Assembly (NCBI GenBank): GCA_016182045.1
Contig: JACOYE010000007.1
Span: forward strand, 34,121 to 98,120
DNA: 64,000 nt
DNA from: Candidatus Microgenomates bacterium
GTDB lineage: Bacteria; Patescibacteriota; Microgenomatia; Daviesbacterales; UBA10151
Reading direction: 5' to 3'
Part shown: positions 15,138-55,972 of the stretch, piece by piece
Layout: the number at the start of each line of letters is the position of its first letter
How positions within the stretch are numbered: position 1 is the first letter of the stretch
The notes under the pieces: model-generated
Database searches by the model: none
What the model was told of the DNA's origin: nothing
The model's input: only the letters and a program-made list of their open reading frames with translations
Program-made: the position numbers and the translations under genes

Positions 15138-15950
15138 TTAGATTACCTTAACAAGTTTTCCACTATTTAGGATACTTTTTAGGATAAAGGCAAAAAAGAG
15201 GACCGAAGCGGTAAAGTAGAAAATATTTAAAATAAAGGCTAGCCAGAAAGATTGAATATCAAATTGCCCCCCTTTTATGATCTGTCTCATCCCTTCAAAT
15301 ACATGAGAAATTGGAATAAAGTAGGCAATCTTTTGAAAAACTTCCGGTAAAATATTGATGGGATAAAATACCGCTGCAAAAGGCTGCAGTAAAAAAGGCA
15401 TGATCCAGGTTAGCGGCCCGATTGAATGGCCGTATCTTAATACCAGTGAGATATTAAAAATGCCAAAAGAGGTGGCGAAAATAAACAAATTCAGAGCAAA
15501 AAGGGACAGTCCCAAGCCTAAAGAAGTAATCTGAAAGTTATAAAAAATTGCAGCCATAATCCACATAGACAAAAAAGTAATGGTAATTTTTATTAAACTG
15601 ACTAAAATAAGTCCGCTGATATATTCCAAGAAGGTAATGGGAGTGGATAAAACATTAATTAGATTTCTGTCCCAAATATCAAACATAAAATTGACCCCGA
15701 TATCAGTTGAGACTTTCTCAAAAATCACCCAAAGCATGATCCCACCCAGTAAAAAAGCTGCCAAAGTTGGGGTATTAAGTCCTTGAATATATGATGATAA
15801 AAATCCCCAAAGCACTATCATTAAAACCGGTGAGATTAACACATCAAAAAACCGCTCCAGCTGGTGAATGGCTGTGAAATAATGTCTTATTACTATGGCA
15901 AAAACCCGGTTAAAATTCATCTTGATGTCTTGATAAGTGTATAAACACAT
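15138..15950 (-). CDS. ABC-2 type transporter permease
   Basis: 270 aa, 6 TM; overlaps upstream ABC ATPase gene. Confidence 0.6.
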   Translation of the reverse strand: MCLYTYQDIKMNFNRVFAIVIRHYFTAIHQLERFFDVLISPVLMIVLWGFLSSYIQGLNTPTLAAFLLGGIMLWVIFEKVSTDIGVNFMFDIWDRNLINVLSTPITFLEYISGLILVSLIKITITFLSMWIMAAIFYNFQITSLGLGLSLFALNLFIFATSFGIFNISLVLRYGHSIGPLTWIMPFLLQPFAAVFYPINILPEVFQKIAYFIPISHVFEGMRQIIKGGQFDIQSFWLAFILNIFYFTASVLFFAFILKSILNSGKLVKVI

Positions 15951-42357: not shown

Positions 42358-43422
42358 TCAATCCATAAAATAATCCAACTTCATAGCCTTTTTAACTTCT
42401 TCTAATGTTTTTTGGGCTTCTGATCGGGCTTTTTCAGTACCTTCTTTGAGGATCCGTTCGACAAGCTCAGGATCTCGCTCGAATCGAGCTCGACTTTTTC
42501 TTATTGGATCCAGGAAATTATTTAAAACTTTAACCAGAAACTTTTTTACCTCAATATCCCCCACCTGGCCTTTTGTATAGCGAGATTTGAGATTTGAGAT
42601 TTGAGATTTGAGATTTTCAGGACCAAAGGCATCTAAATAGATAAAAACGGGGTTGCCTTCAACTCTACCTGGATCAGTAGCATGTATTCTTTTAGGATCT
42701 GTATACATATTCATCACCTTTTTCTCCACTTCTCCAGCAGTATCTGAAAGATTAATCACATTCCCAGCAGACTTACTCATTTTGGCTTTGCCATCTGTTC
42801 CAGGTAAAATGCCTAAATCTTCTGGTACCAAAGCTTCCGGTACTGGAAAAACCTGACCAGACACCTCCGAGGTGGGCTTTGACTCCTCGGAGGTGGATTG
42901 AGAAGATTTACCATAAACTCTATTAAATTCCCTGGCAATTTCTCTGGTAATCTCGATATGCGAAACTTGATCCTTACCCACCGGTACTAAGTGGCTTCTC
43001 ACCATTAAAATATCTGCTGCCTGAAGCACCGGGTAACCTAAAAGCCCATAGGAGGGAATGGTGATATGTGCATCTCTCATCACATCTTTTAAGGTGGGCA
43101 TCCGTTCAAGTCTGGGGACGGTGGTTAAATTGCCAAAAATGATGGCCAGTTCTGCCACTTCAGCTATTTGAGATTGAACATAAATGGTGGCTTTCTCAGG
43201 ATCAATTCCGACGGAAAGATAATCCAATACCATCTGGTAAATATTTTCCTTAAGCTCTTGGGTATCTTTAAGCTCAGGTTTAGTAGTTAAGGTATGCAAA
43301 TCCGCAACAATAAAAAAGCACTCATATTCATCTTGCAACCTGACCCTATTTTTCAAAGACCCCACATAATGGCCTAAATGTAATTTTCCAGTTGGTCTGT
43401 CCCCTGTTAATATTCTTTTCAT
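42358..43422 (-). CDS. trpS: tryptophan--tRNA ligase with in-frame heptamer-repeat insertion
   Basis: GDRPTGKLHLGHYVG and KMSKS motifs; NLKSQISNLKSQISNLKS repeat. Confidence 0.9.
   Translation of the reverse strand: MKRILTGDRPTGKLHLGHYVGSLKNRVRLQDEYECFFIVADLHTLTTKPELKDTQELKENIYQMVLDYLSVGIDPEKATIYVQSQIAEVAELAIIFGNLTTVPRLERMPTLKDVMRDAHITIPSYGLLGYPVLQAADILMVRSHLVPVGKDQVSHIEITREIAREFNRVYGKSSQSTSEESKPTSEVSGQVFPVPEALVPEDLGILPGTDGKAKMSKSAGNVINLSDTAGEVEKKVMNMYTDPKRIHATDPGRVEGNPVFIYLDAFGPENLKSQISNLKSRYTKGQVGDIEVKKFLVKVLNNFLDPIRKSRARFERDPELVERILKEGTEKARSEAQKTLEEVKKAMKLDYFMD
42583..42617. repeat. tandem heptanucleotide repeat (GATTTGA)n inside trpS
   Basis: gatttgagatttgagatttgagatttga... Confidence 0.8.
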
Positions 43423-43676
43423 AAGTTTTTACTTTTATCAGTATCCTTTTTTAATTTCTCAATAATCCACATCCTTGCTAAAGTGGTGGGACCAATACCC
43501 AGATGATCTGCTTTCTGCCGCAGCTTTTGAATATCGTCAGATTCAAACCTAATGGTTAATGTATCAGTTTTATTTGCACGGTGTAAACCAACTTTTATAT
43601 CCTTACCGAAAACATCTATGGCATCATGTTTATCCCAAAAATCAGCCTCCTCTTCTAAGGTTTTAAACGGCTTCAT
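43419..43676 (-). CDS. brnA: BrnA-like antitoxin (second copy)
   Basis: LEEEADFWDKHD...IGPTTLARMWIIEKL, paralogous to 41715..42077. Confidence 0.6.
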   Translation of the reverse strand: MKPFKTLEEEADFWDKHDAIDVFGKDIKVGLHRANKTDTLTIRFESDDIQKLRQKADHLGIGPTTLARMWIIEKLKKDTDKSKNL

Positions 43677-43705
43677 TGGTTTGATAGATCCCTTTTTAAC
43701 AAATC

Positions 43706-44002
43706 TTATCTTAATTTTTCGCCTCCCTTAAAATTTTCCATATATAATAATTGTTCTTTTTTCTTGGTGTACCTTGCAGTCACAAGTCCGTATCTATTTT
43801 TCCCACTTCTTGGTCCAACTACCACAGTAATTAACCTGCCTTTATTCGTTTTTCCCACTAACAAACTTTTATCAGATCTCCCCTTTAAAATTAAATAATC
43901 CCCAGCTATAACCTCAAAAACTTCATCTATTGTTATGCTGTGCCTAGCTATATGCTCTGGTCTATCTTCCTCAATAATCAGCTCATCAACAGTAACATCC
44001 AT
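43706..44002 (-). CDS. brnT: BrnT-like (DUF497) toxin (second copy)
   Basis: EEDRPEHIARHSITIDEVFEV...RLITVV pattern. Confidence 0.55.
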   Translation of the reverse strand: MDVTVDELIIEEDRPEHIARHSITIDEVFEVIAGDYLILKGRSDKSLLVGKTNKGRLITVVVGPRSGKNRYGLVTARYTKKKEQLLYMENFKGGEKLR

Positions 44003-44065
44003 ATTGTACTACATTGTCTTACAAATATCAAGGGTTAAAATTCGTTTCGTAATTTTGATTATACT

Positions 44066-44389
44066 TTAAAATAATCCCTGATGTTTTAAAGAAATCCTTT
44101 CTCTACCCCTTCTTTCCTTTTCCAAGTTAAATAGTATCTCTGCTTGACGTACACTATATCTTGATCCATCAAAGATTGGTTCGCCTTCTTCTATCGCTGG
44201 AAGTAGAATAGGCTTTCCATAAAATTTATGTAACTCCATTCCCTCTGGGACTTCTGGAATATATGTTCCAGGAACAAACCGAGGTGCCGGCATTTTAGGC
44301 CGCGTTCTCCCTCTCTCCTGTCTTTCAAGCTTACGTTGTTCATGAATTTGCTGATTACGTTCAGATTTTTGAAATTCCATATTTATCAC
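44066..44389 (-). CDS. hypothetical protein
   Basis: 107 aa, basic. Confidence 0.35.
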   Translation of the reverse strand: MINMEFQKSERNQQIHEQRKLERQERGRTRPKMPAPRFVPGTYIPEVPEGMELHKFYGKPILLPAIEEGEPIFDGSRYSVRQAEILFNLEKERRGRERISLKHQGLF

Positions 44390-44691
44390 CTCCTCCTCAT
44401 TTTTTCTCTAATTAAAATCTCTGTTCCCATATTTTCTTCAAGCCTAATCGAAGCAAAAGCTTCAATTCTTCTTAGTAATCCGACATTGTGTTTTTCTAAA
44501 ATCCTCTTTACTCTACCTACTTCCCTAGAACTTAAAGATTCAGGATAAACAATACTGCCACTTCCTTTTCTGATTCTTTCCATCCCATCCATAATCGCTC
44601 TCACTACCCCACTAACTAAACTCTCATCCTCAAAAGGAAGATTATTACTTTCTCTTTTTGCTAATTCCTGTTGATATCTTTCTTTACTCAT
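44386..44691 (-). CDS. hypothetical protein
   Basis: 101 aa; ATGA overlap with downstream gene. Confidence 0.35.
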   Translation of the reverse strand: MSKERYQQELAKRESNNLPFEDESLVSGVVRAIMDGMERIRKGSGSIVYPESLSSREVGRVKRILEKHNVGLLRRIEAFASIRLEENMGTEILIREKMRRR

Positions 44692-44850
44692 AAGTTACAT
44701 CCTTTAAAATCTTTTAAGAAAATGCCTATGAGTAATTTATGAAGATCTAGAAGTTGTTTATAGCCAAACTAGCCCCTGTCCCGCCTCGGCGGAACCAGAG
44801 GTTCCTTTATTTATATTATTTCTATCTAGTCTTTCCATATTTTCCTTTAT

Positions 44851-45105
44851 TTAAACTACTTTAAACCTTCCTAGCTGTAACTCTTTTGATCCACGGGTTA
44901 CTGTGGCAATACCTACTTTTAATTCTTCAGCAATTTTGTGCTGAGGTATTCCAGCTTTCAATCTTTTTACTATCTGAAGCCTGGTAGGTATTTCTTGAAG
45001 TTCCTTTGGAGTTAAAATCCCCAAAAGAAAATCTTCCATCTCTTCCCTATTTTTAATGCTTAGTAACAAATCAATTAGTTCGTTTAATTGCTTATTCCTA
45101 ATCAT
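44851..45105 (-). CDS. TrpR-like YerC/YecD family DNA-binding protein
   Basis: IAEELKVGIATVTRGSKEL C-terminal HTH. Confidence 0.65.
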   Translation of the reverse strand: MIRNKQLNELIDLLLSIKNREEMEDFLLGILTPKELQEIPTRLQIVKRLKAGIPQHKIAEELKVGIATVTRGSKELQLGRFKVV

Positions 45106-45742: not shown

Positions 45743-47113
45743 TTAATTAATATAATTATCAGAAAACCATCGCAATGCAGCTTGGAGGTTTTTCGTTTCT
45801 TTCGTGCCTAATCTCAAGGCATATTGAAAAGATGCCTCTCTTTTAGCCTCAGCAAGATCTATATCATAAATTTCAACAGGCCATAAGTACTCTGCTATAT
45901 TACCCACCACTTTTAGCTTATAAAGATCATAAGCAGGACCATTATGTATTCCTGACTCTGGATCAAATTCCCCCACTTCATACTGGGAAGCTATGTAATC
46001 CTCAAGTGCGAATATCATTACTTCTAAAGGACTCTCTAACCCTTCTACAGAGATTAATCTTCTTCTAAATTGCACTCTATCTGATCTGCCATGACTGGTC
46101 TTAACAGAATCTTTTTTCTTAATTTCACCATTACCAGTAAATTCACTAAATAAATTTTCCACTTCTTGGGTAACTTTATCTCGTAGTGGGCGTCCTCCCT
46201 CCATAATCACTAGTCTAAAGCCAACATGATCTTCAACATGATGTAGGGTTTCTATAACACCACCATTAGTTTCAGAGCCATTAAGTCCGGCTCCATTGGC
46301 CAACCAAGATCTCTCCTTTGCCTTAATAACTGCTGATGGAAGATCCTTTTCTCTTGGATCATACAATACTAGTACATCCCCTCCCTGTTCATCCTTAAGT
46401 CCTAATTTTCTAACAGGAAAATCTAAGGACTTCACCCATAAATCATCTCTAAATTTCGGATCAGGATACTTAGAACTTAATCCAACTAATCTGTTCGTAC
46501 CTGGTTCATGATATGAGAAAGTATGATATTTTTTGGGATCTCCACTTTTACCTGTAAATAACCGTCTCTCTAAAAAAGTATTAATTCCTGCTAGAACTTC
46601 TCTGGCCTGACCATTTTCATCTCTAGACATCAATTCAGCACAAAGCAAAGCTAAACCTAATTGACTACCTTGCTCATACCTATACTGCTGACCTATTAGT
46701 CCTGAAGGCATAGTCAGTACTCTCAAGGCATCTGAAGGTTTTCCCCGGGCCCATGCAATATTATTTGTTAAGGTTGCTTGTCTTTCTTGATCAGCAAAGA
46801 GTATGCCATGGGCGTAATTCACCGTATCGGTTGCTCGTCTCACTGCTGTTTTCCAAAATCTCTCTCTTTCATCCTGATTATCTTTGATGCCGAACATAGC
46901 TCCAACTTTATCGTATTGTGCCCTATCTACTCCTAAACAGAGTTCTTCAGAAATATCCTCGCCCCTTTTCCATGCCTGTCTAAATTTATCATAAGTTTCC
47001 TCACCAAAAAAGCTTTTTACTTCCCTCACCATTAACTTTCCACCCCTAATACCTTGTTTAAACATATCAAACACTAATCCTGGTCTTCCTTCAGCTAATT
47101 CTGTAATTGCCAT
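45743..47113 (-). CDS. hypothetical protein, 456 aa, unknown function, preceded by attenuator leader
   Basis: AAGGAGA RBS 8 nt upstream of ATG; no recognisable domain. Confidence 0.55.
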   Translation of the reverse strand: MAITELAEGRPGLVFDMFKQGIRGGKLMVREVKSFFGEETYDKFRQAWKRGEDISEELCLGVDRAQYDKVGAMFGIKDNQDERERFWKTAVRRATDTVNYAHGILFADQERQATLTNNIAWARGKPSDALRVLTMPSGLIGQQYRYEQGSQLGLALLCAELMSRDENGQAREVLAGINTFLERRLFTGKSGDPKKYHTFSYHEPGTNRLVGLSSKYPDPKFRDDLWVKSLDFPVRKLGLKDEQGGDVLVLYDPREKDLPSAVIKAKERSWLANGAGLNGSETNGGVIETLHHVEDHVGFRLVIMEGGRPLRDKVTQEVENLFSEFTGNGEIKKKDSVKTSHGRSDRVQFRRRLISVEGLESPLEVMIFALEDYIASQYEVGEFDPESGIHNGPAYDLYKLKVVGNIAEYLWPVEIYDIDLAEAKREASFQYALRLGTKETKNLQAALRWFSDNYIN

Positions 47114-47133
47114 AATTTTCTCCTTTCTAAACT

Positions 47134-47300
47134 AAAAACCGCTCCTTTTTTTGGGAGCGGTTCATTTAGGTTTTTATTCCCCTTTATTTGGGAATTACCC
47201 TTAGAACCGCTGCCCTGTAATAAGGGAGCGTTTCATAAAATTAAACATTCTGACCATATACATAATTTTCATATTCATAAATTTTCTAAAAAAGAAAAGA
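47134..47300 (-). promoter_or_regulatory. putative ribosome-mediated transcription attenuator (leader ORF + alternative hairpins + terminator)
   Basis: segments AACGCTCCC / GGGCAGCGGTT / AACCGCTCCC / GGAGCGGTTTTT allow 1:2 + 3:4(terminator) or 2:3 pairing. Confidence 0.55.
47201..47278 (-). CDS. leader peptide MNMKIMYMVRMFNFMKRSLITGQRF (6 in-frame AUG codons)
   Basis: all six ATG in one frame; stop codon lies inside hairpin segment 2. Confidence 0.4.
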   Translation of the reverse strand: MNMKIMYMVRMFNFMKRSLITGQRF

Positions 47301-47325
47301 ATCCTTCTGACAGGATTCTGCTCTT
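47296..47325 (-). terminator. Rho-independent terminator after citryl-CoA lyase-like gene
   Basis: AGAATCCT-tctgac-AGGATTCT stem followed on minus strand by TTTCTTTTTT. Confidence 0.55.
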
Positions 47326-47419
47326 ATTTTTAGAATAAACACAAATGAGCATTTTGTCAAGATCTATTTTACTATAAGTTAAGCAAAAAGTCAACCACAA
47401 TCAGTTTACATGATTGTGG

Positions 47420-48211
47420 TCAAGTTTTCTTAAGAGATCTTGGAGGAGCACCATCATATTCAATCTCCTCATCAGCAATTCTTCTGAATGGCTTTTCTCT
47501 GACCCATTCCTCAAAAATATGGGCCACCAGCCCTACCACCCTGCCTATTATGAAAAATCCTTTACCTAACCTATAATCAAAACCCATATCAGAAATAACC
47601 GCTGCTATTGCCCCATCCACATTAATGGGGATCTTTTTACCCTTTTTCTCCTGTAGCACACCCTCTACATTTTGAGCCAGTTCACAATGTTCCCCATAAA
47701 AACCTAACTTTTTGGCTTTTTCAAAAATCTGGGTAGCTCTGGGATCTTCATCTTTATAGACTTTATGCCCGAAACCAGGGATTCTATCACCTGAACCCAA
47801 AACTTTTTCCACCAGCTTTTCTGCAGTTAATCCCATCTGAAGTAACCTGGCACACTCTTCAATTGCTCCTCCATGGGCATCCCCTATTCCCAAAACTCCG
47901 GCAGCCACTGCTGCTTGCATGGGATTACCAGCTGAGGCTGAATTCCTGGCATTAGTCACAGATGGTGGACCTAAACCATTATCTATTGTGGAAATAAGGA
48001 TAGCATCCAGCATAGCTCTTTCTTTATCAGAGGGAAGTTCACTTTTTAATTCCAGCCAGATAGCATCTGTAAAATTAACTTTATCTATCAATTCTGTGAC
48101 TTTATAACCATGAATATGAGCCTCCCCATCAATTATCCCTGAAATAGCTGTTTTCCACTTTTTATCCATATTTGAATAAGTTCTCCAAGTTACAAGATAC
48201 AAGTTTTCCAA
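47420..48211 (-). CDS. citryl-CoA lyase-like protein (citrate-synthase-fold, ACL C-terminal domain homolog)
   Basis: citrate synthase signature GFGHKVYK.EDPR. Confidence 0.7.
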   Translation of the reverse strand: MENLYLVTWRTYSNMDKKWKTAISGIIDGEAHIHGYKVTELIDKVNFTDAIWLELKSELPSDKERAMLDAILISTIDNGLGPPSVTNARNSASAGNPMQAAVAAGVLGIGDAHGGAIEECARLLQMGLTAEKLVEKVLGSGDRIPGFGHKVYKDEDPRATQIFEKAKKLGFYGEHCELAQNVEGVLQEKKGKKIPINVDGAIAAVISDMGFDYRLGKGFFIIGRVVGLVAHIFEEWVREKPFRRIADEEIEYDGAPPRSLKKT

Positions 48212-48275
48212 AAAATAATCAAATTCAAAAGTTTAAATTCTAAAATTTGGGTTTTTGAATTTGTTTGTAACTTGT

Positions 48276-49172
48276 TTACTTGGACACTTGATTGTTTAAT
48301 AAACCAGGTATTTCATCTGGAGTTTTGGCTATTTTGACACCGGCTTCCTCAAACGCCTTAATTTTTGATTTATAACTGCCTTTCTCTCCATAAATTATTG
48401 CTCCTGCATGGCCTAATTTTGTACCCTGAGGTAAAGTTTCTGCAAATAAACCAGATATAAAGGCAACTACTGGTTTTGTGAAACCACCAGATTTGATCAG
48501 TTCTGCAGCTTCTTCCTCATATGTTCCACCTATTTCCCCAAATAACACCACAGCCTCAGTTTGAGGGTCTTTTTCAAATTCTTCCATCAAATCTGCAAAA
48601 GTTGAGCCCACCAATATATCTCCACCAATACCCACCACAGTTGATTGCCCAATTCCATTTTTGGTAAGAATCCATGAAACTTCCGAGGCCATTCCTCCTG
48701 ATTTTGAGATTACACCTACTGATCCTTTGGAAAAAACTCCTCTGGGATCATCTCCTCCAATTGAACCAACCTTTCCTATTCCTGGTGAGATTATCCCAAT
48801 TGATGAAGGACCGACAATTCTGACAGTCTGTTTGGCTAAAGCTATTGCCTTGGCAGTATCTTGGATGGGAATATGTTCTGTTAAAACATTTATAAGAGGA
48901 ATTTTGGCCTTAATTGCTTCCTCTATTGCCCCAAATGCAGCAAAGTTAGGCACAGCGACAAATGAAGTATTTATCCCTGGATGATTCTCTAAAGCCTCAG
49001 CTATTGTATTATAAACCGGCACTCCATGAACTTCCTGACCGCCTTTACCAGGAGTTACTCCAGCCAAAACGCGAGTGCCATAATTTTTCATCTGCAAGGC
49101 CACTTTGGACCCTTCTTTACCGGTGATACCTTGAACTAAAACTTTGGTTTGTTGGGTTATTAGAATAGCCAT
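48276..49172 (-). CDS. succinyl-CoA synthetase alpha-like subunit (CcsB/AclA N-domain-like)
   Basis: CoA-binding VLVQGITGKEG; phosphohistidine loop GHAGAII. Confidence 0.85.
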   Translation of the reverse strand: MAILITQQTKVLVQGITGKEGSKVALQMKNYGTRVLAGVTPGKGGQEVHGVPVYNTIAEALENHPGINTSFVAVPNFAAFGAIEEAIKAKIPLINVLTEHIPIQDTAKAIALAKQTVRIVGPSSIGIISPGIGKVGSIGGDDPRGVFSKGSVGVISKSGGMASEVSWILTKNGIGQSTVVGIGGDILVGSTFADLMEEFEKDPQTEAVVLFGEIGGTYEEEAAELIKSGGFTKPVVAFISGLFAETLPQGTKLGHAGAIIYGEKGSYKSKIKAFEEAGVKIAKTPDEIPGLLNNQVSK

Positions 49173-49334
49173 TAAATTTCTCCTTTAAAAGCAGCGCAGT
49201 CATGAGCATAAAAGCAATTAGAAAGTTTTGTGTGTAGATACCCGTCACAAAACTTTCCCATAGCGAGACTAGAGATATATCTCAATGTTTCAGTATCCAC
49301 TAGTCGAGCGGTGCTTTTTGCCATGACAAGCTGA

Positions 49335-50549
49335 TTATTTTCCATAAGCCAGATCTACCATAATCTTTGCTGTACTTGTCATCGGTGTCTCCCTCCCATA
49401 TATATGAAAATCAAAACCCTCTTTCTTACCCACTTCTTTTAACATCTCAAAAGCTTCTTTATCCCTTGGTCCACCACGCCGGATCACAATTGGGTATATA
49501 GGCTTAGGCTTGATCTCTCGCAACCCTTCCACAAAGCCCATTAAAGTTTCATAAATATCAGTAAAATTGGCTGTTCCGCCCACAAACCAACAGCCTTTTA
49601 ACCCAGGTTTTGATAAAACTATCTTGGTTAGTTTTTTTAATTTCTCACGCGGAGGATTACCTGAGTGCTCAGTATAATTGGCAGGTCTTCCACCATATGC
49701 CAAAAGCGCATCCATATTGACAATAGACCCTCCACCTCCGGCTGCAATAACTGCAATATCTCCATCTAAATCCCAATAAACAGAACCTGCTGTACCTCTG
49801 TGATCCCCTTCATCAATTTTGCGGGCCTCAATTTCAGCCTCAGTTGGAGGCCTGCCAAAAAGATTTCTTTCCGGGAATTTTACCTCACGTCTAAAATCAG
49901 CATCATCATCCAAAATCACTTTGGCATCTAAGGCATATACTTTTGCATCACTTCGACTCGAAGACTCGCTCAGTGAATATTGGCTGAGCGAAGTCGAAGC
50001 CTTACCTATAACTAATGGATTTATTTCCGCTAACTCACAATCATATTTAGTAAATACTTGCCATAATTTATTAGCCACATCCACTAGCTCTTTTGGAAAA
50101 TCCTGTGGAGTTTCAAATCCTTTTAAAATATCAACAGGATAACTTTGTGCCCTCTTTTCCTCTACCCCAGTTCCTCCCTCCCCAAAAGTCATGATGGGGC
50201 CACGGGTTGAAGTATCATAGGAAAATGATAAATAATACTCTTTTTCATATTCCACTATCTCCTCTACCAAAACCTTTTCCACCTTTTCCCCATTAATCGT
50301 TTTTCCAAATAATTCTTTTAGGCTGGTGCTTACTGCCTGTTGACTGTCCACTTTTATGATTCCACCAGATTGCGCTCTTTTGCCAGATAAAGTTTGTGCT
50401 TTTAAAACCACCCCATCTGTCATTCTGACCCTGAGCGCAGTCGAAGGGGAAGAATCTAATTCCTCATGAGCTGTGATAAACTGTGACTCTGGCACATTTA
50501 TCCCACAATTTTTAAAAAGAATTTTGCCTTCAAATTCATAAAGAAGCAT
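49335..50549 (-). CDS. succinyl-CoA synthetase beta-like ATP-grasp subunit (CcsA/AclB-like) with two in-frame hairpin-element insertions
   Basis: ATP-grasp N-domain; low-complexity inserts SLSQYSLSESSSRSDAKV and SSPSTALRVRMTDG. Confidence 0.8.
   Translation of the reverse strand: MLLYEFEGKILFKNCGINVPESQFITAHEELDSSPSTALRVRMTDGVVLKAQTLSGKRAQSGGIIKVDSQQAVSTSLKELFGKTINGEKVEKVLVEEIVEYEKEYYLSFSYDTSTRGPIMTFGEGGTGVEEKRAQSYPVDILKGFETPQDFPKELVDVANKLWQVFTKYDCELAEINPLVIGKASTSLSQYSLSESSSRSDAKVYALDAKVILDDDADFRREVKFPERNLFGRPPTEAEIEARKIDEGDHRGTAGSVYWDLDGDIAVIAAGGGGSIVNMDALLAYGGRPANYTEHSGNPPREKLKKLTKIVLSKPGLKGCWFVGGTANFTDIYETLMGFVEGLREIKPKPIYPIVIRRGGPRDKEAFEMLKEVGKKEGFDFHIYGRETPMTSTAKIMVDLAYGK
49949..50001. 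repeat. hairpin element (CTGAGCGAAGTCGAAG family) inside SCS-beta-like gene
   Basis: cacttcgactcgaagactcgctcag...ctgagcgaagtcgaag inverted arms. Confidence 0.7.
50419..50456. repeat. hairpin element (GTCATTCTGACCCTGAGCGCAGTCGAAGG) inside SCS-beta-like gene
   Basis: shares CCTGAGCG(A/C)AGTCGAAGG core with 51417 copy. Confidence 0.7.
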
Positions 50550-51964: not shown

Positions 51965-52037
51965 GTACCAGGGGTGGGGATCGAACCCACAACCGCCACG
52001 TTATGAATGTGGTGCTCCGCCATTGAGCTACCCTGGC
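51965..52037 (-). tRNA. tRNA with CAT anticodon (elongator Met or lysidine-type Ile)
   Basis: cloverleaf readable: acceptor GCCAGGG, D arm GCTC/GAGC, anticodon loop TTCATAA, T arm GTGGG-TTCGATC-CCCAC. Confidence 0.75.
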
Positions 52038-53760: not shown

Positions 53761-53832
53761 CGCGGGGAAGTGTAACGGCTGCACACAAGGCTCATAATCT
53801 TGAGGCAGTGGGTTCGACTCCCGCCCCCGCAA
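53761..53832 (+). tRNA. initiator-type tRNA-Met (CAT)
   Basis: 5' CGCGGGG and 3' CCCCCGCAA acceptor identical to E. coli tRNA-fMet (C1xA72 mismatch), anticodon loop CTCATAA. Confidence 0.8.
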
Positions 53833-55899: not shown

Positions 55900-55972
55900 T
55901 GGGCGGACCAGGACTTGAACCTGGAACCAATTCTGTATAAGAGAACCGCTCTACCAATTGAGCTATCCGCCC
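55900..55972 (-). tRNA. tRNA-Ile with TAT (UAU) anticodon
   Basis: acceptor GGGCGGA/TCCGCCC, D arm GCTC-AATTGGTA-GAGC, anticodon loop CTTATAC, T arm CCAGG-TTCAAGT-CCTGG. Confidence 0.65.

Follow-up and report, generated by a model that had tools for sequence, protein, structure and literature searches.

The 64,000-nt stretch of a Candidatus Microgenomates bacterium analyzed here (the window, to which all window coordinates refer as positions) carries an RNA leader upstream of a gene for a 456-amino-acid (aa) protein with a putative RelA/SpoT-like fold. This leader is probably a translation-coupled transcription attenuator, whose terminator would be read through when translation of a short leader open reading frame (ORF) lags. 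It belongs to a leader family that is real, conserved and undescribed, with a mechanism of a known kind. As judged from the aligned peptides, the family lacks a run of any single codon and has a conserved peptide, usually with one Trp; the window copy appears to have lost the Trp and a Gly-rich tail and to have gained Met codons, partly via a 15-nt duplication. An earlier note on this DNA had described an attenuator of the trp/his/leu type keyed to Met codons. The architecture is borne out here by alternative folds that are computed, conserved and covarying, and by an ORF with a coding pattern in relatives.

Anatomy and predicted folds of the leader

All elements of the leader lie on the minus strand. 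A pattern match places a sigma-70-like promoter (TTGACA-17 nt-TATTCT) at 47360-47332, with a predicted start site, and a second candidate at 47394-47366; relatives carry TTGACA-type promoters at the equivalent position. The first structured element, P0, is a 5′ hairpin (AGAATCCT/AGGATTCT) with a U-run at 47319-47288 that ends 9 nt 5′ of the leader ATG. The leader ORF itself (47278-47201; 25 codons plus stop, peptide MNMKIMYMVRMFNFMKRSLITGQRF*) lacks a Shine-Dalgarno (SD) sequence and contains, as the earlier note had stated, six in-frame ATGs in 15 codons. Segment 1 (GAAACGCTCCCT, 47234-47223, codons 15-19) forms the 5′ arm of hairpin P1, and segment 2 (AGGGCAGCGGTTC, 47216-47204) serves both as the 3′ arm of P1 and as the 5′ arm of an antiterminator, with the stop codon (47203-47201) directly after it. 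A middle hairpin, Pm (47200-47169), is common to the two conformers and sits inside the antiterminator helix. Segment 3 (GAACCGCTCCC, 47163-47153) provides the 3′ arm of the antiterminator and the 5′ arm of an intrinsic terminator, whose 3′ arm is segment 4 with its U-run (GGAGCGGTTTTT, 47145-47134). This terminator (47163-47134) has a 10-bp stem with 6 GC pairs and a T5 tract, 20 nt before the start codon of the 456-aa gene. All of the pairings named earlier (1:2 with the last codons and stop, the alternative 2:3, and the terminator 3:4) could be located. An exact repeat of GGAGCGGTTTTT at 15847-15858 falls within a long ORF (15138-15950), and we discarded it as a chance match rather than a second attenuator.

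Structure prediction returned both of the expected conformers. The minimum-energy fold of the full leader combines P1, Pm and the terminator (-43.1 kcal/mol), and RNA ending before segment 4 folds as the 2:3 antiterminator (-33.7 kcal/mol). Folded separately, the three elements have energies of -13.5 (P1), -16.3 (terminator) and -28.4 kcal/mol (antiterminator including the hairpin inside it), and the folding energy of the 241-nt leader is far below that of shuffled sequences (z = -5.35). The effect of a translating ribosome was modeled with a footprint scan, in which 28 nt were masked around each A-site codon and the terminator probability was then computed at equilibrium. With the A-site on codons 1-11 this probability is ~0.45-0.55, on codons 12-13 and 15-18 it falls to 0.08-0.25, and on codons 19-26 it rises to 0.94-0.99; codon 14 is an outlier (0.93). 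Only codons 12-18 drive the window fold to the antiterminator in this model.

These structures suggest how the leader could work. Transcription would start at the sigma-70-like promoter, and the RNA would open with P0, followed by the SD-less ORF. Segment 2, formed by the last ORF codons, could pair back with segment 1 or forward with segment 3, and segment 3 could alternatively pair with segment 4 to build the terminator. A ribosome sitting at segment 2 or the stop codon when segments 3 and 4 emerge would cover segment 2, so that the terminator would form and transcription would halt. With a ribosome that is late, stalled before or on segment 1, or absent, segments 2 and 3 would pair and polymerase would enter the 456-aa gene. 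We infer from this arrangement a race between ribosome and polymerase in which the RelA/SpoT-fold protein would be switched on when leader translation lags, a direction of control that fits a RelA/SpoT-like output. The antiterminator has a toehold outside P1 and exceeds P1 in stability, and in several relatives the free RNA prefers the antiterminator; the default state without translation may therefore be "on."

Conservation and coding signature in relatives

Besides the window we retrieved 20 distinct loci, and a further locus (L009) is 5′-truncated and uninformative. A full leader is present in 12 loci (L006, L008, L010, L011, L013, L014, L122, L137, L138, L141, L143 and L144), in every case upstream of a homologue of the 456-aa protein (23-59% identical to that of the window). 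In total, 13 further leaders, all from Microgenomates, share the full set of P0, SD-less ATG, P1, Pm, antiterminator and terminator. Scanning with a covariance model of 13 leaders recovered one copy from outside its seed, at 4400-4261 (-) of L122 (80.7 bits), a contig of Candidatus Daviesbacteria; within the 64-kb window the leader is the only convincing site (80.6 bits; next best 19 bits). This second L122 leader (peptide MKALFTVNFRYVWMHRSLILRGGGSG) lies 1.2 kb upstream of the other L122 copy, which precedes a RelA/SpoT-like gene for a 446-aa homologue ~26% identical to the window's 456-aa protein. The second leader precedes two paralogous genes (4247-3654 and 3617-3168 (-); 197 and 149 aa), neither with a Pfam match. 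Because this copy stands before a different gene pair, the attenuator family is not tied to one target gene. A protein-pattern scan of genome contigs with the alignment of the 456-aa family found no match, and a terminator-pattern scan of genome contigs returned 120 terminators, mostly unrelated, with L122 as the only true relative.

The competing helices are maintained throughout the family. Across all leaders the terminator has an energy of -10 to -17 kcal/mol, the segment 2/segment 3 duplex, which reaches past its core and encloses the middle hairpin, one of -15.6 to -24.9 kcal/mol, and the segment 1/segment 2 duplex one of -8.8 to -22 kcal/mol. Hairpins equivalent to Pm are present in relatives, and the helix extensions vary in sequence between leaders with complementarity kept. 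RNAalifold on a MAFFT alignment recovered the terminator core only; since that alignment is not structural, we used per-sequence duplex analysis with a cognate versus non-cognate control. Cognate segments 2 and 3 pair more strongly than non-cognate ones (-24.6 vs. -20.1 kcal/mol), and the cognate partner ranks 1-3 of 13 in 11/13 rows. Substitutions within the core are likewise matched. For example, GGAGCGG (segments 2 and 4)/CCGCTCC (segment 3) of the window reads GAGGCGG/CCGCCTC in the second L122 copy, with all three segments changed together, and in L137 a G-to-U change in segment 2 is accompanied by C-to-A changes in both segment 3 and segment 1. Among 13 leaders including the window, the footprint scan gave low terminator probability with a ribosome on or before segment 1 in 10, and in most relatives a ribosome over segment 2 raised this probability to 0.8-1.0; L006 showed weak switching.

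Sequence divergence of the leader ORF carries a coding signature. In all 14 leaders an ATG lies 3-15 nt after P0 and the frame stays open through segments 1 and 2, ending either just after segment 2 or just after the middle hairpin. Leader peptides (for example MKPTCCLVRKMFWYQTSLISGSGSGGDGPNKRE in L010) are more conserved than the downstream proteins, with identities of 88% vs. 55% for L010/L144, 72% vs. 47% for L006/L014, and 69-72% vs. 42-49% among L006, L014 and L143. Leader differences at codon positions 1/2/3 (2/3/7, 6/5/13, 6/5/11 and 7/4/11) are most frequent at the third position, and between L006 and L014 7/8 changed codons among codons 7-27 are synonymous, against ~20% expected. Since ORF substitutions in relatives are mostly synonymous, we conclude that the leader ORF is translated in these relatives at least.

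This conservation also invites a different explanation, that of a TnaC- or SpeFL-like sensor: a ligand or cellular state would make the peptide (core W-x-[KR]-x-x-L-[IF]-I-G-G-S-G...) arrest the ribosome translating it, and the stall site would pick the fold. Conservation well above that of the downstream protein, through mostly synonymous changes, is what such a sensor predicts, and one peptide type before two gene sets in L122 indicates that the peptide travels with the attenuator and not with the regulated protein. Trp is enriched before segment 2 when relatives are pooled, one per subfamily (9/151 residues, 6.8-fold, p ~9e-6; Cys 4.5-fold, Met not enriched), and a single Trp occurs in 10/13 relatives, 8-9 codons before the segment 2 core. 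A TrpR-like gene and tryptophanyl-tRNA synthetase (TrpRS) are conserved neighbors, a hint of Trp as a possible ligand. Yet L143 has Arg at the Trp position with the rest of its peptide kept, L008 and L011 have neither residue, and the N-terminal halves differ between subfamilies. The family uses three reading frames relative to segment 2 (window, L010 type, L011), and the Gly-Ser motif is partly imposed by the RNA sequence of segment 2 (GGGAGCGGT). No arrest motif of TnaC, SpeFL, SecM or Erm leaders was recognized. If the peptide did act in this way, the window copy, which has lost most of the conserved peptide, would be degenerate or constitutively attenuating; overall we find an arrest sensor distinctly improbable.

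P0, a small GC-rich hairpin with a U-run that separates the promoter-like hexamers from the first start codon, is not confined to loci with the leader ORF. It is found in all 14 leaders and also in seven leaderless relatives (L001, L002, L003, L005, L007, L012 and L136), where promoter and P0 stand directly before the SD, and its stem shows compensatory changes. It looks like an intrinsic terminator placed a few nucleotides past the likely transcription start, and it could act as a 5′ stabilizer, a basal terminator or a U-rich landing site for ribosomes. In L003/L139, ~60 nt upstream of the main gene, P0 is followed by "AAAAGGAGCGGTTTTTTT," a segment 4 remnant without segments 1-3. The leader ORF seems to have been cleanly deleted between A/T runs, so that expression there would escape attenuation.

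The ORF might have no role at all, the leader being a terminator controlled by a factor or ligand (a riboswitch or protein-binding leader) or merely part of a terminator stack for the upstream operon. Absence of an SD from the leader ORF, occurrence of P0 without the ORF in leaderless relatives, and three terminator-like hairpins within 300 nt around the leader are all compatible with this idea. However, the ORF after P0 is kept open through segments 1 and 2 in 14/14 leaders with mainly synonymous substitutions, the 2:3 helix covaries, and no Rfam riboswitch or T-box match was found. The upstream gene moreover has its own terminator (47423-47391), and promoter-like sites lie between that terminator and the leader. 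We therefore give this explanation very little credence.

Several observations weigh against translation-coupled attenuation as the function of the window leader. The leader is dispensable, as the seven leaderless relatives show. Translation of the window's own ORF is presumed from its relatives, and the window peptide is only 33% identical to that of the nearest relative (main proteins 59%); a 1-nt insertion in segment 2 puts it in another frame, and the Gly-rich tail is lost. No copy of the leader ORF has an SD, although the main genes do, so that efficient initiation is an assumption of the model. Conservation of the peptide at the amino-acid level exceeds what a simple race would need, which hints at an additional function of the nascent peptide. 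L137 and L138 never leave the terminator state in the equilibrium footprint model, and termination and read-through are themselves model predictions. Finally, the ATG excess of the window leader is statistically real and duplication explains only part of it.

Methionine codons of the window leader

ATG occupies codons 1, 3, 6, 8, 11 and 15 of the window leader (47278, 47272, 47263, 47257, 47248 and 47236 on the minus strand), and ATG is absent from the other two frames. Across both strands and all frames, no other 15-codon stretch of the 64 kb has as many as six in-frame ATGs, a density reached in 2/200 first-order Markov simulations of the window and, for the first 48 nt, in 0/20,000 dinucleotide shuffles. 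Elsewhere in the window, five in-frame ATGs in 15 codons occur only at ~49948-49936 (-), inside an ATP-grasp gene, and at ~7020 (-); clusters of four to five arise by chance in its A+T-rich sequence.

The six ATGs are not independent, since a single in-frame 15-nt duplication yields two of them. The start-codon region was found by Tandem Repeats Finder to be duplicated in tandem (GAAAATTTATGAATAT / GAAAATT-ATGTATAT) at 47286-47255 (-), with period 15, 2.1 copies, 88% matches and a score of 50, and this duplication creates the pairs ATG1/ATG3 and ATG6/ATG8. Before the duplication the window leader would have read MYMVRMFNFMKRSLITGQRF. ATG1 (or ATG3) and ATG11 have counterparts in the aligned leaders of L010 and L144, and ATG1 and ATG11 appear ancestral.

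Leader peptides of the 13 relatives contain 1-2 Met each. The pattern that the earlier note proposed to look for in relatives, an AUG-rich ORF with a terminator, is found in part: ORF, pairings and terminator are kept in 13 leaders, and richness in AUG is confined to the window leader. Absence of the ORF or of the alternative pairings from relatives, which the earlier note had named as refuting its view, is thus not what these leaders show. A bias against out-of-frame ATGs is not a family trait either (4 internal in-frame vs. 4 out-of-frame in relatives). The window genome has no close relative in databases, the nearest homologue of the 456-aa protein being ~58-59% identical, so that this comparison of Met codons covers distant relatives.

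One possibility is that the window leader senses methionine: low levels of charged elongator tRNA-Met would slow the ribosome on the five internal AUGs, segments 2 and 3 would pair, and the gene would be expressed, the sensor having been re-keyed from Trp to Met. Met makes up 5/20 residues before segment 2, compared with 1.9% in the long ORFs of the window (13-fold, p ~3e-5), with no Trp, and six in-frame with zero out-of-frame ATGs exceeds shuffled sequences. Met15 falls within the stall-sensitive codons 12-18, at or next to the Trp position of 10/13 relatives, and Met11 is borderline. A ribosome held in codons 1-11 still halves the terminator probability relative to one on segment 2, so early Met codons could add to the effect in a race model, in which any slow codon before segment 2 aids read-through. 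Against this, no relative is enriched in Met, and with two ATGs from one duplication and ATG1 and ATG11 apparently ancestral, few independent gains are left. Four of the six ATGs (codons 1, 3, 6 and 8) lie too far 5′ to mask segment 1 in the footprint model, and nothing connects the 456-aa protein with the synthesis, transport or charging of Met. The window peptide resembles a diverged, frameshifted copy of the conserved one, and its Met codons may have accumulated as constraint relaxed in A+T-rich sequence and starts in other frames were selected against. Met sensing is thus unlikely in our view.

Because Met codons are not conserved in orthologous leaders and the target lacks a Met link, we do not class the element as an amino-acid-specific attenuator, and the claim that it is keyed to Met is at best weakly supported. 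The Met run is probably a lineage-specific feature of the leader and not its defining sensor. More generally, a conspicuous codon run seen in a single genome says little about the signal of an attenuator unless relatives share it. It is doubtful that in the window lineage a family of attenuators with one rare Trp was re-keyed to Met; if it was, this would be the first leader-peptide attenuator to read tRNA-Met charging (literature searches found no Met leader-peptide attenuator) and a cis-encoded starvation sensor for an alarmone-type response through a RelA/SpoT-like enzyme in a bacterium of the Candidate Phyla Radiation (CPR). CPR bacteria are generally regarded as lacking most amino-acid biosynthesis. 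For translation-coupled attenuation in the family as a whole, a conserved peptide without a codon run means that the signal may lie in the overall speed of translation, in a single rare codon or in the nascent chain.

The regulated gene, its neighborhood and known attenuators

The regulated gene, HYT18_00895 of Candidatus Microgenomates bacterium, to whose product the 456-aa protein is identical, occupies 45743-47126 (-) with its SD (AAAGGAG; GGAG at ~47123-47120, ATG at 47113). A word-indexed search found 47 homologues and an exhaustive search 261 cluster representatives. Neither Pfam, NCBIfam nor PADLOC matches the protein, ten distant family members contain no Pfam domain, and a family profile gave nothing significant against PDB sequences. 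An AlphaFold2 model (predicted local distance difference test score 86.6, predicted template modeling score 0.86) has a predicted fold closest to the catalytic domains of Rel and small alarmone synthetases. The motifs R254-x-K256-x3-S260-x3-K264 and D295-x-x-G298-x-R300, with invariant K256, K264, D295 and E364, resemble the synthetase motifs RxKxxxSxxxK, DxxGxR and ExQxRT of RelA/SpoT homologs. We regard the protein as a putative RelA/SpoT-fold nucleotidyltransferase-like protein. For this family of ~260 clusters, which lies beside TrpRS in many genomes, the attenuator suggests induction when translation falters.

An intrinsic terminator follows the 456-aa gene at 45710-45687 (-), and in the window genome the attenuator therefore controls a single gene. 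Beyond it lie a TrpR-like gene, small ORFs without assignment, a BrnT-like toxin gene and TrpRS. We considered and rejected control of TrpRS by the window attenuator, given this terminator and the intervening genes. In L137 and L141 no terminator separates the homologue of the 456-aa gene from TrpRS, and co-transcription of the two is possible there. TrpRS follows the RelA/SpoT-like gene directly or past a few small genes in the window (region 42358-45105 (-)), L011, L122, L137, L138, L141 and L143, and the order NTP-transferase, 456-aa-family gene, TrpRS (with other genes between) recurs in the window, L011, L122, L137, L138 and L141. The TrpR-like (TrpR/YerC-like) gene stands directly 3′ of the 456-aa-family gene in L143 and after the terminator in the window. 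Together with the single conserved Trp codon in most leaders, these TrpRS and TrpR-like neighbors form a suggestive Trp theme.

Other features of the locus lie further out. The BrnT-like match in the window is weak (98 aa, below the Pfam cut-off) and adjoins an 85-aa ORF (43419-44002 (-)); L136 and L141 have clearer BrnT/CopG pairs at the matching position. Upstream of the leader is a citryl-CoA-lyase-like gene (47420-48211 (-)), whose stop codon is overlapped by the terminator-like hairpin at 47423-47391 (-), a 13-bp stem followed by CTTTTTGCTT. This gene belongs to a citryl-CoA synthetase/lyase-like three-gene cluster (47420-50549 (-)) in this CPR genome, with synteny kept in relatives, whose members are an ATP-grasp and citrate-binding protein, a CoA-ligase alpha-like (succinyl-CoA-ligase-like) protein and citryl-CoA lyase. 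Transfer RNA genes at 51966-52037 (-), 53761-53832 (+) and 55900-55972 (-) are the sole matches at Rfam gathering scores in the 64 kb.

Database and literature searches returned no counterpart of the leader. At Rfam gathering scores the whole window yields tRNAs only, and with E-values up to 10 the best match in 46900-47700 is Phe_leader (RF01859; 22.3 bits against a gathering score of 55, E = 0.37), with psRNA14 far below threshold in the same interval. Literature searches likewise found no attenuator of an alarmone-synthetase-type gene and none from CPR/Patescibacteria. As far as these searches go, they agree with the earlier statement that attenuation keyed to Met is not a described regulatory class; the mechanism of the present family is of a known kind. 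The leader family points to ribosome-coupled transcription control in the reduced genomes of CPR/Patescibacteria.

The classical attenuators of Proteobacteria and Actinobacteria (trpL, hisL, leuL, pheL, thrL, ilvL) share with this family a short leader ORF, mutually exclusive 1:2, 2:3 and 3:4 pairings, a stop codon at the 3′ edge of segment 2, an intrinsic terminator just before the SD of the target, and a fold set by ribosome position. In contrast to them, the present family has no codon run for one amino acid, and the Met cluster is unique to the window and mostly upstream of the sensitive codons. It further differs in its conserved peptide, the lack of an SD on the ORF, the extra 5′ hairpin with U-run, the CPR host, and a target that is neither a biosynthetic nor an aminoacyl-tRNA synthetase gene. 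Leader-peptide attenuators have been reported upstream of trpS and leuS in Streptomyces (PMC1262725).

Leader-ORF attenuators of Firmicutes that respond to translation stress or antibiotics (for example bmrB-bmrCD, vmlR and msrD, the last in PMC10314930) resemble this family in having no amino-acid specificity, in read-through of the terminator when leader translation slows, and in an output tied to translation state. They act on ABC-F proteins or efflux pumps and not on a RelA/SpoT-fold protein, and their leader peptides are unrelated in sequence; drug response is a feature of theirs for which the present leader offers no evidence.

TnaC (PMC8429421) and SpeFL are alike in their conserved leader peptide (21-33 residues), in the Trp that most relatives here carry, and in control of downstream termination. 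However, both act on Rho-dependent termination, which they block with a ribosome stalled at the stop codon or close to it, whereas the terminator here is intrinsic and faces a competing helix, no shared motif was recognized, and the window copy lacks Trp. In Escherichia coli pyrBI, too, a leader ORF overlaps the terminator region, and the outcome is set by how closely the ribosome trails polymerase along that ORF. There termination is averted by a close ribosome, with UTP-dependent polymerase pausing as the signal, whereas here a ribosome on segment 2 is predicted to promote termination. By analogy, the logic of this leader family appears closer to that of the Firmicutes translation-stress attenuators, and the conservation of its peptide closer to that of TnaC and SpeFL.

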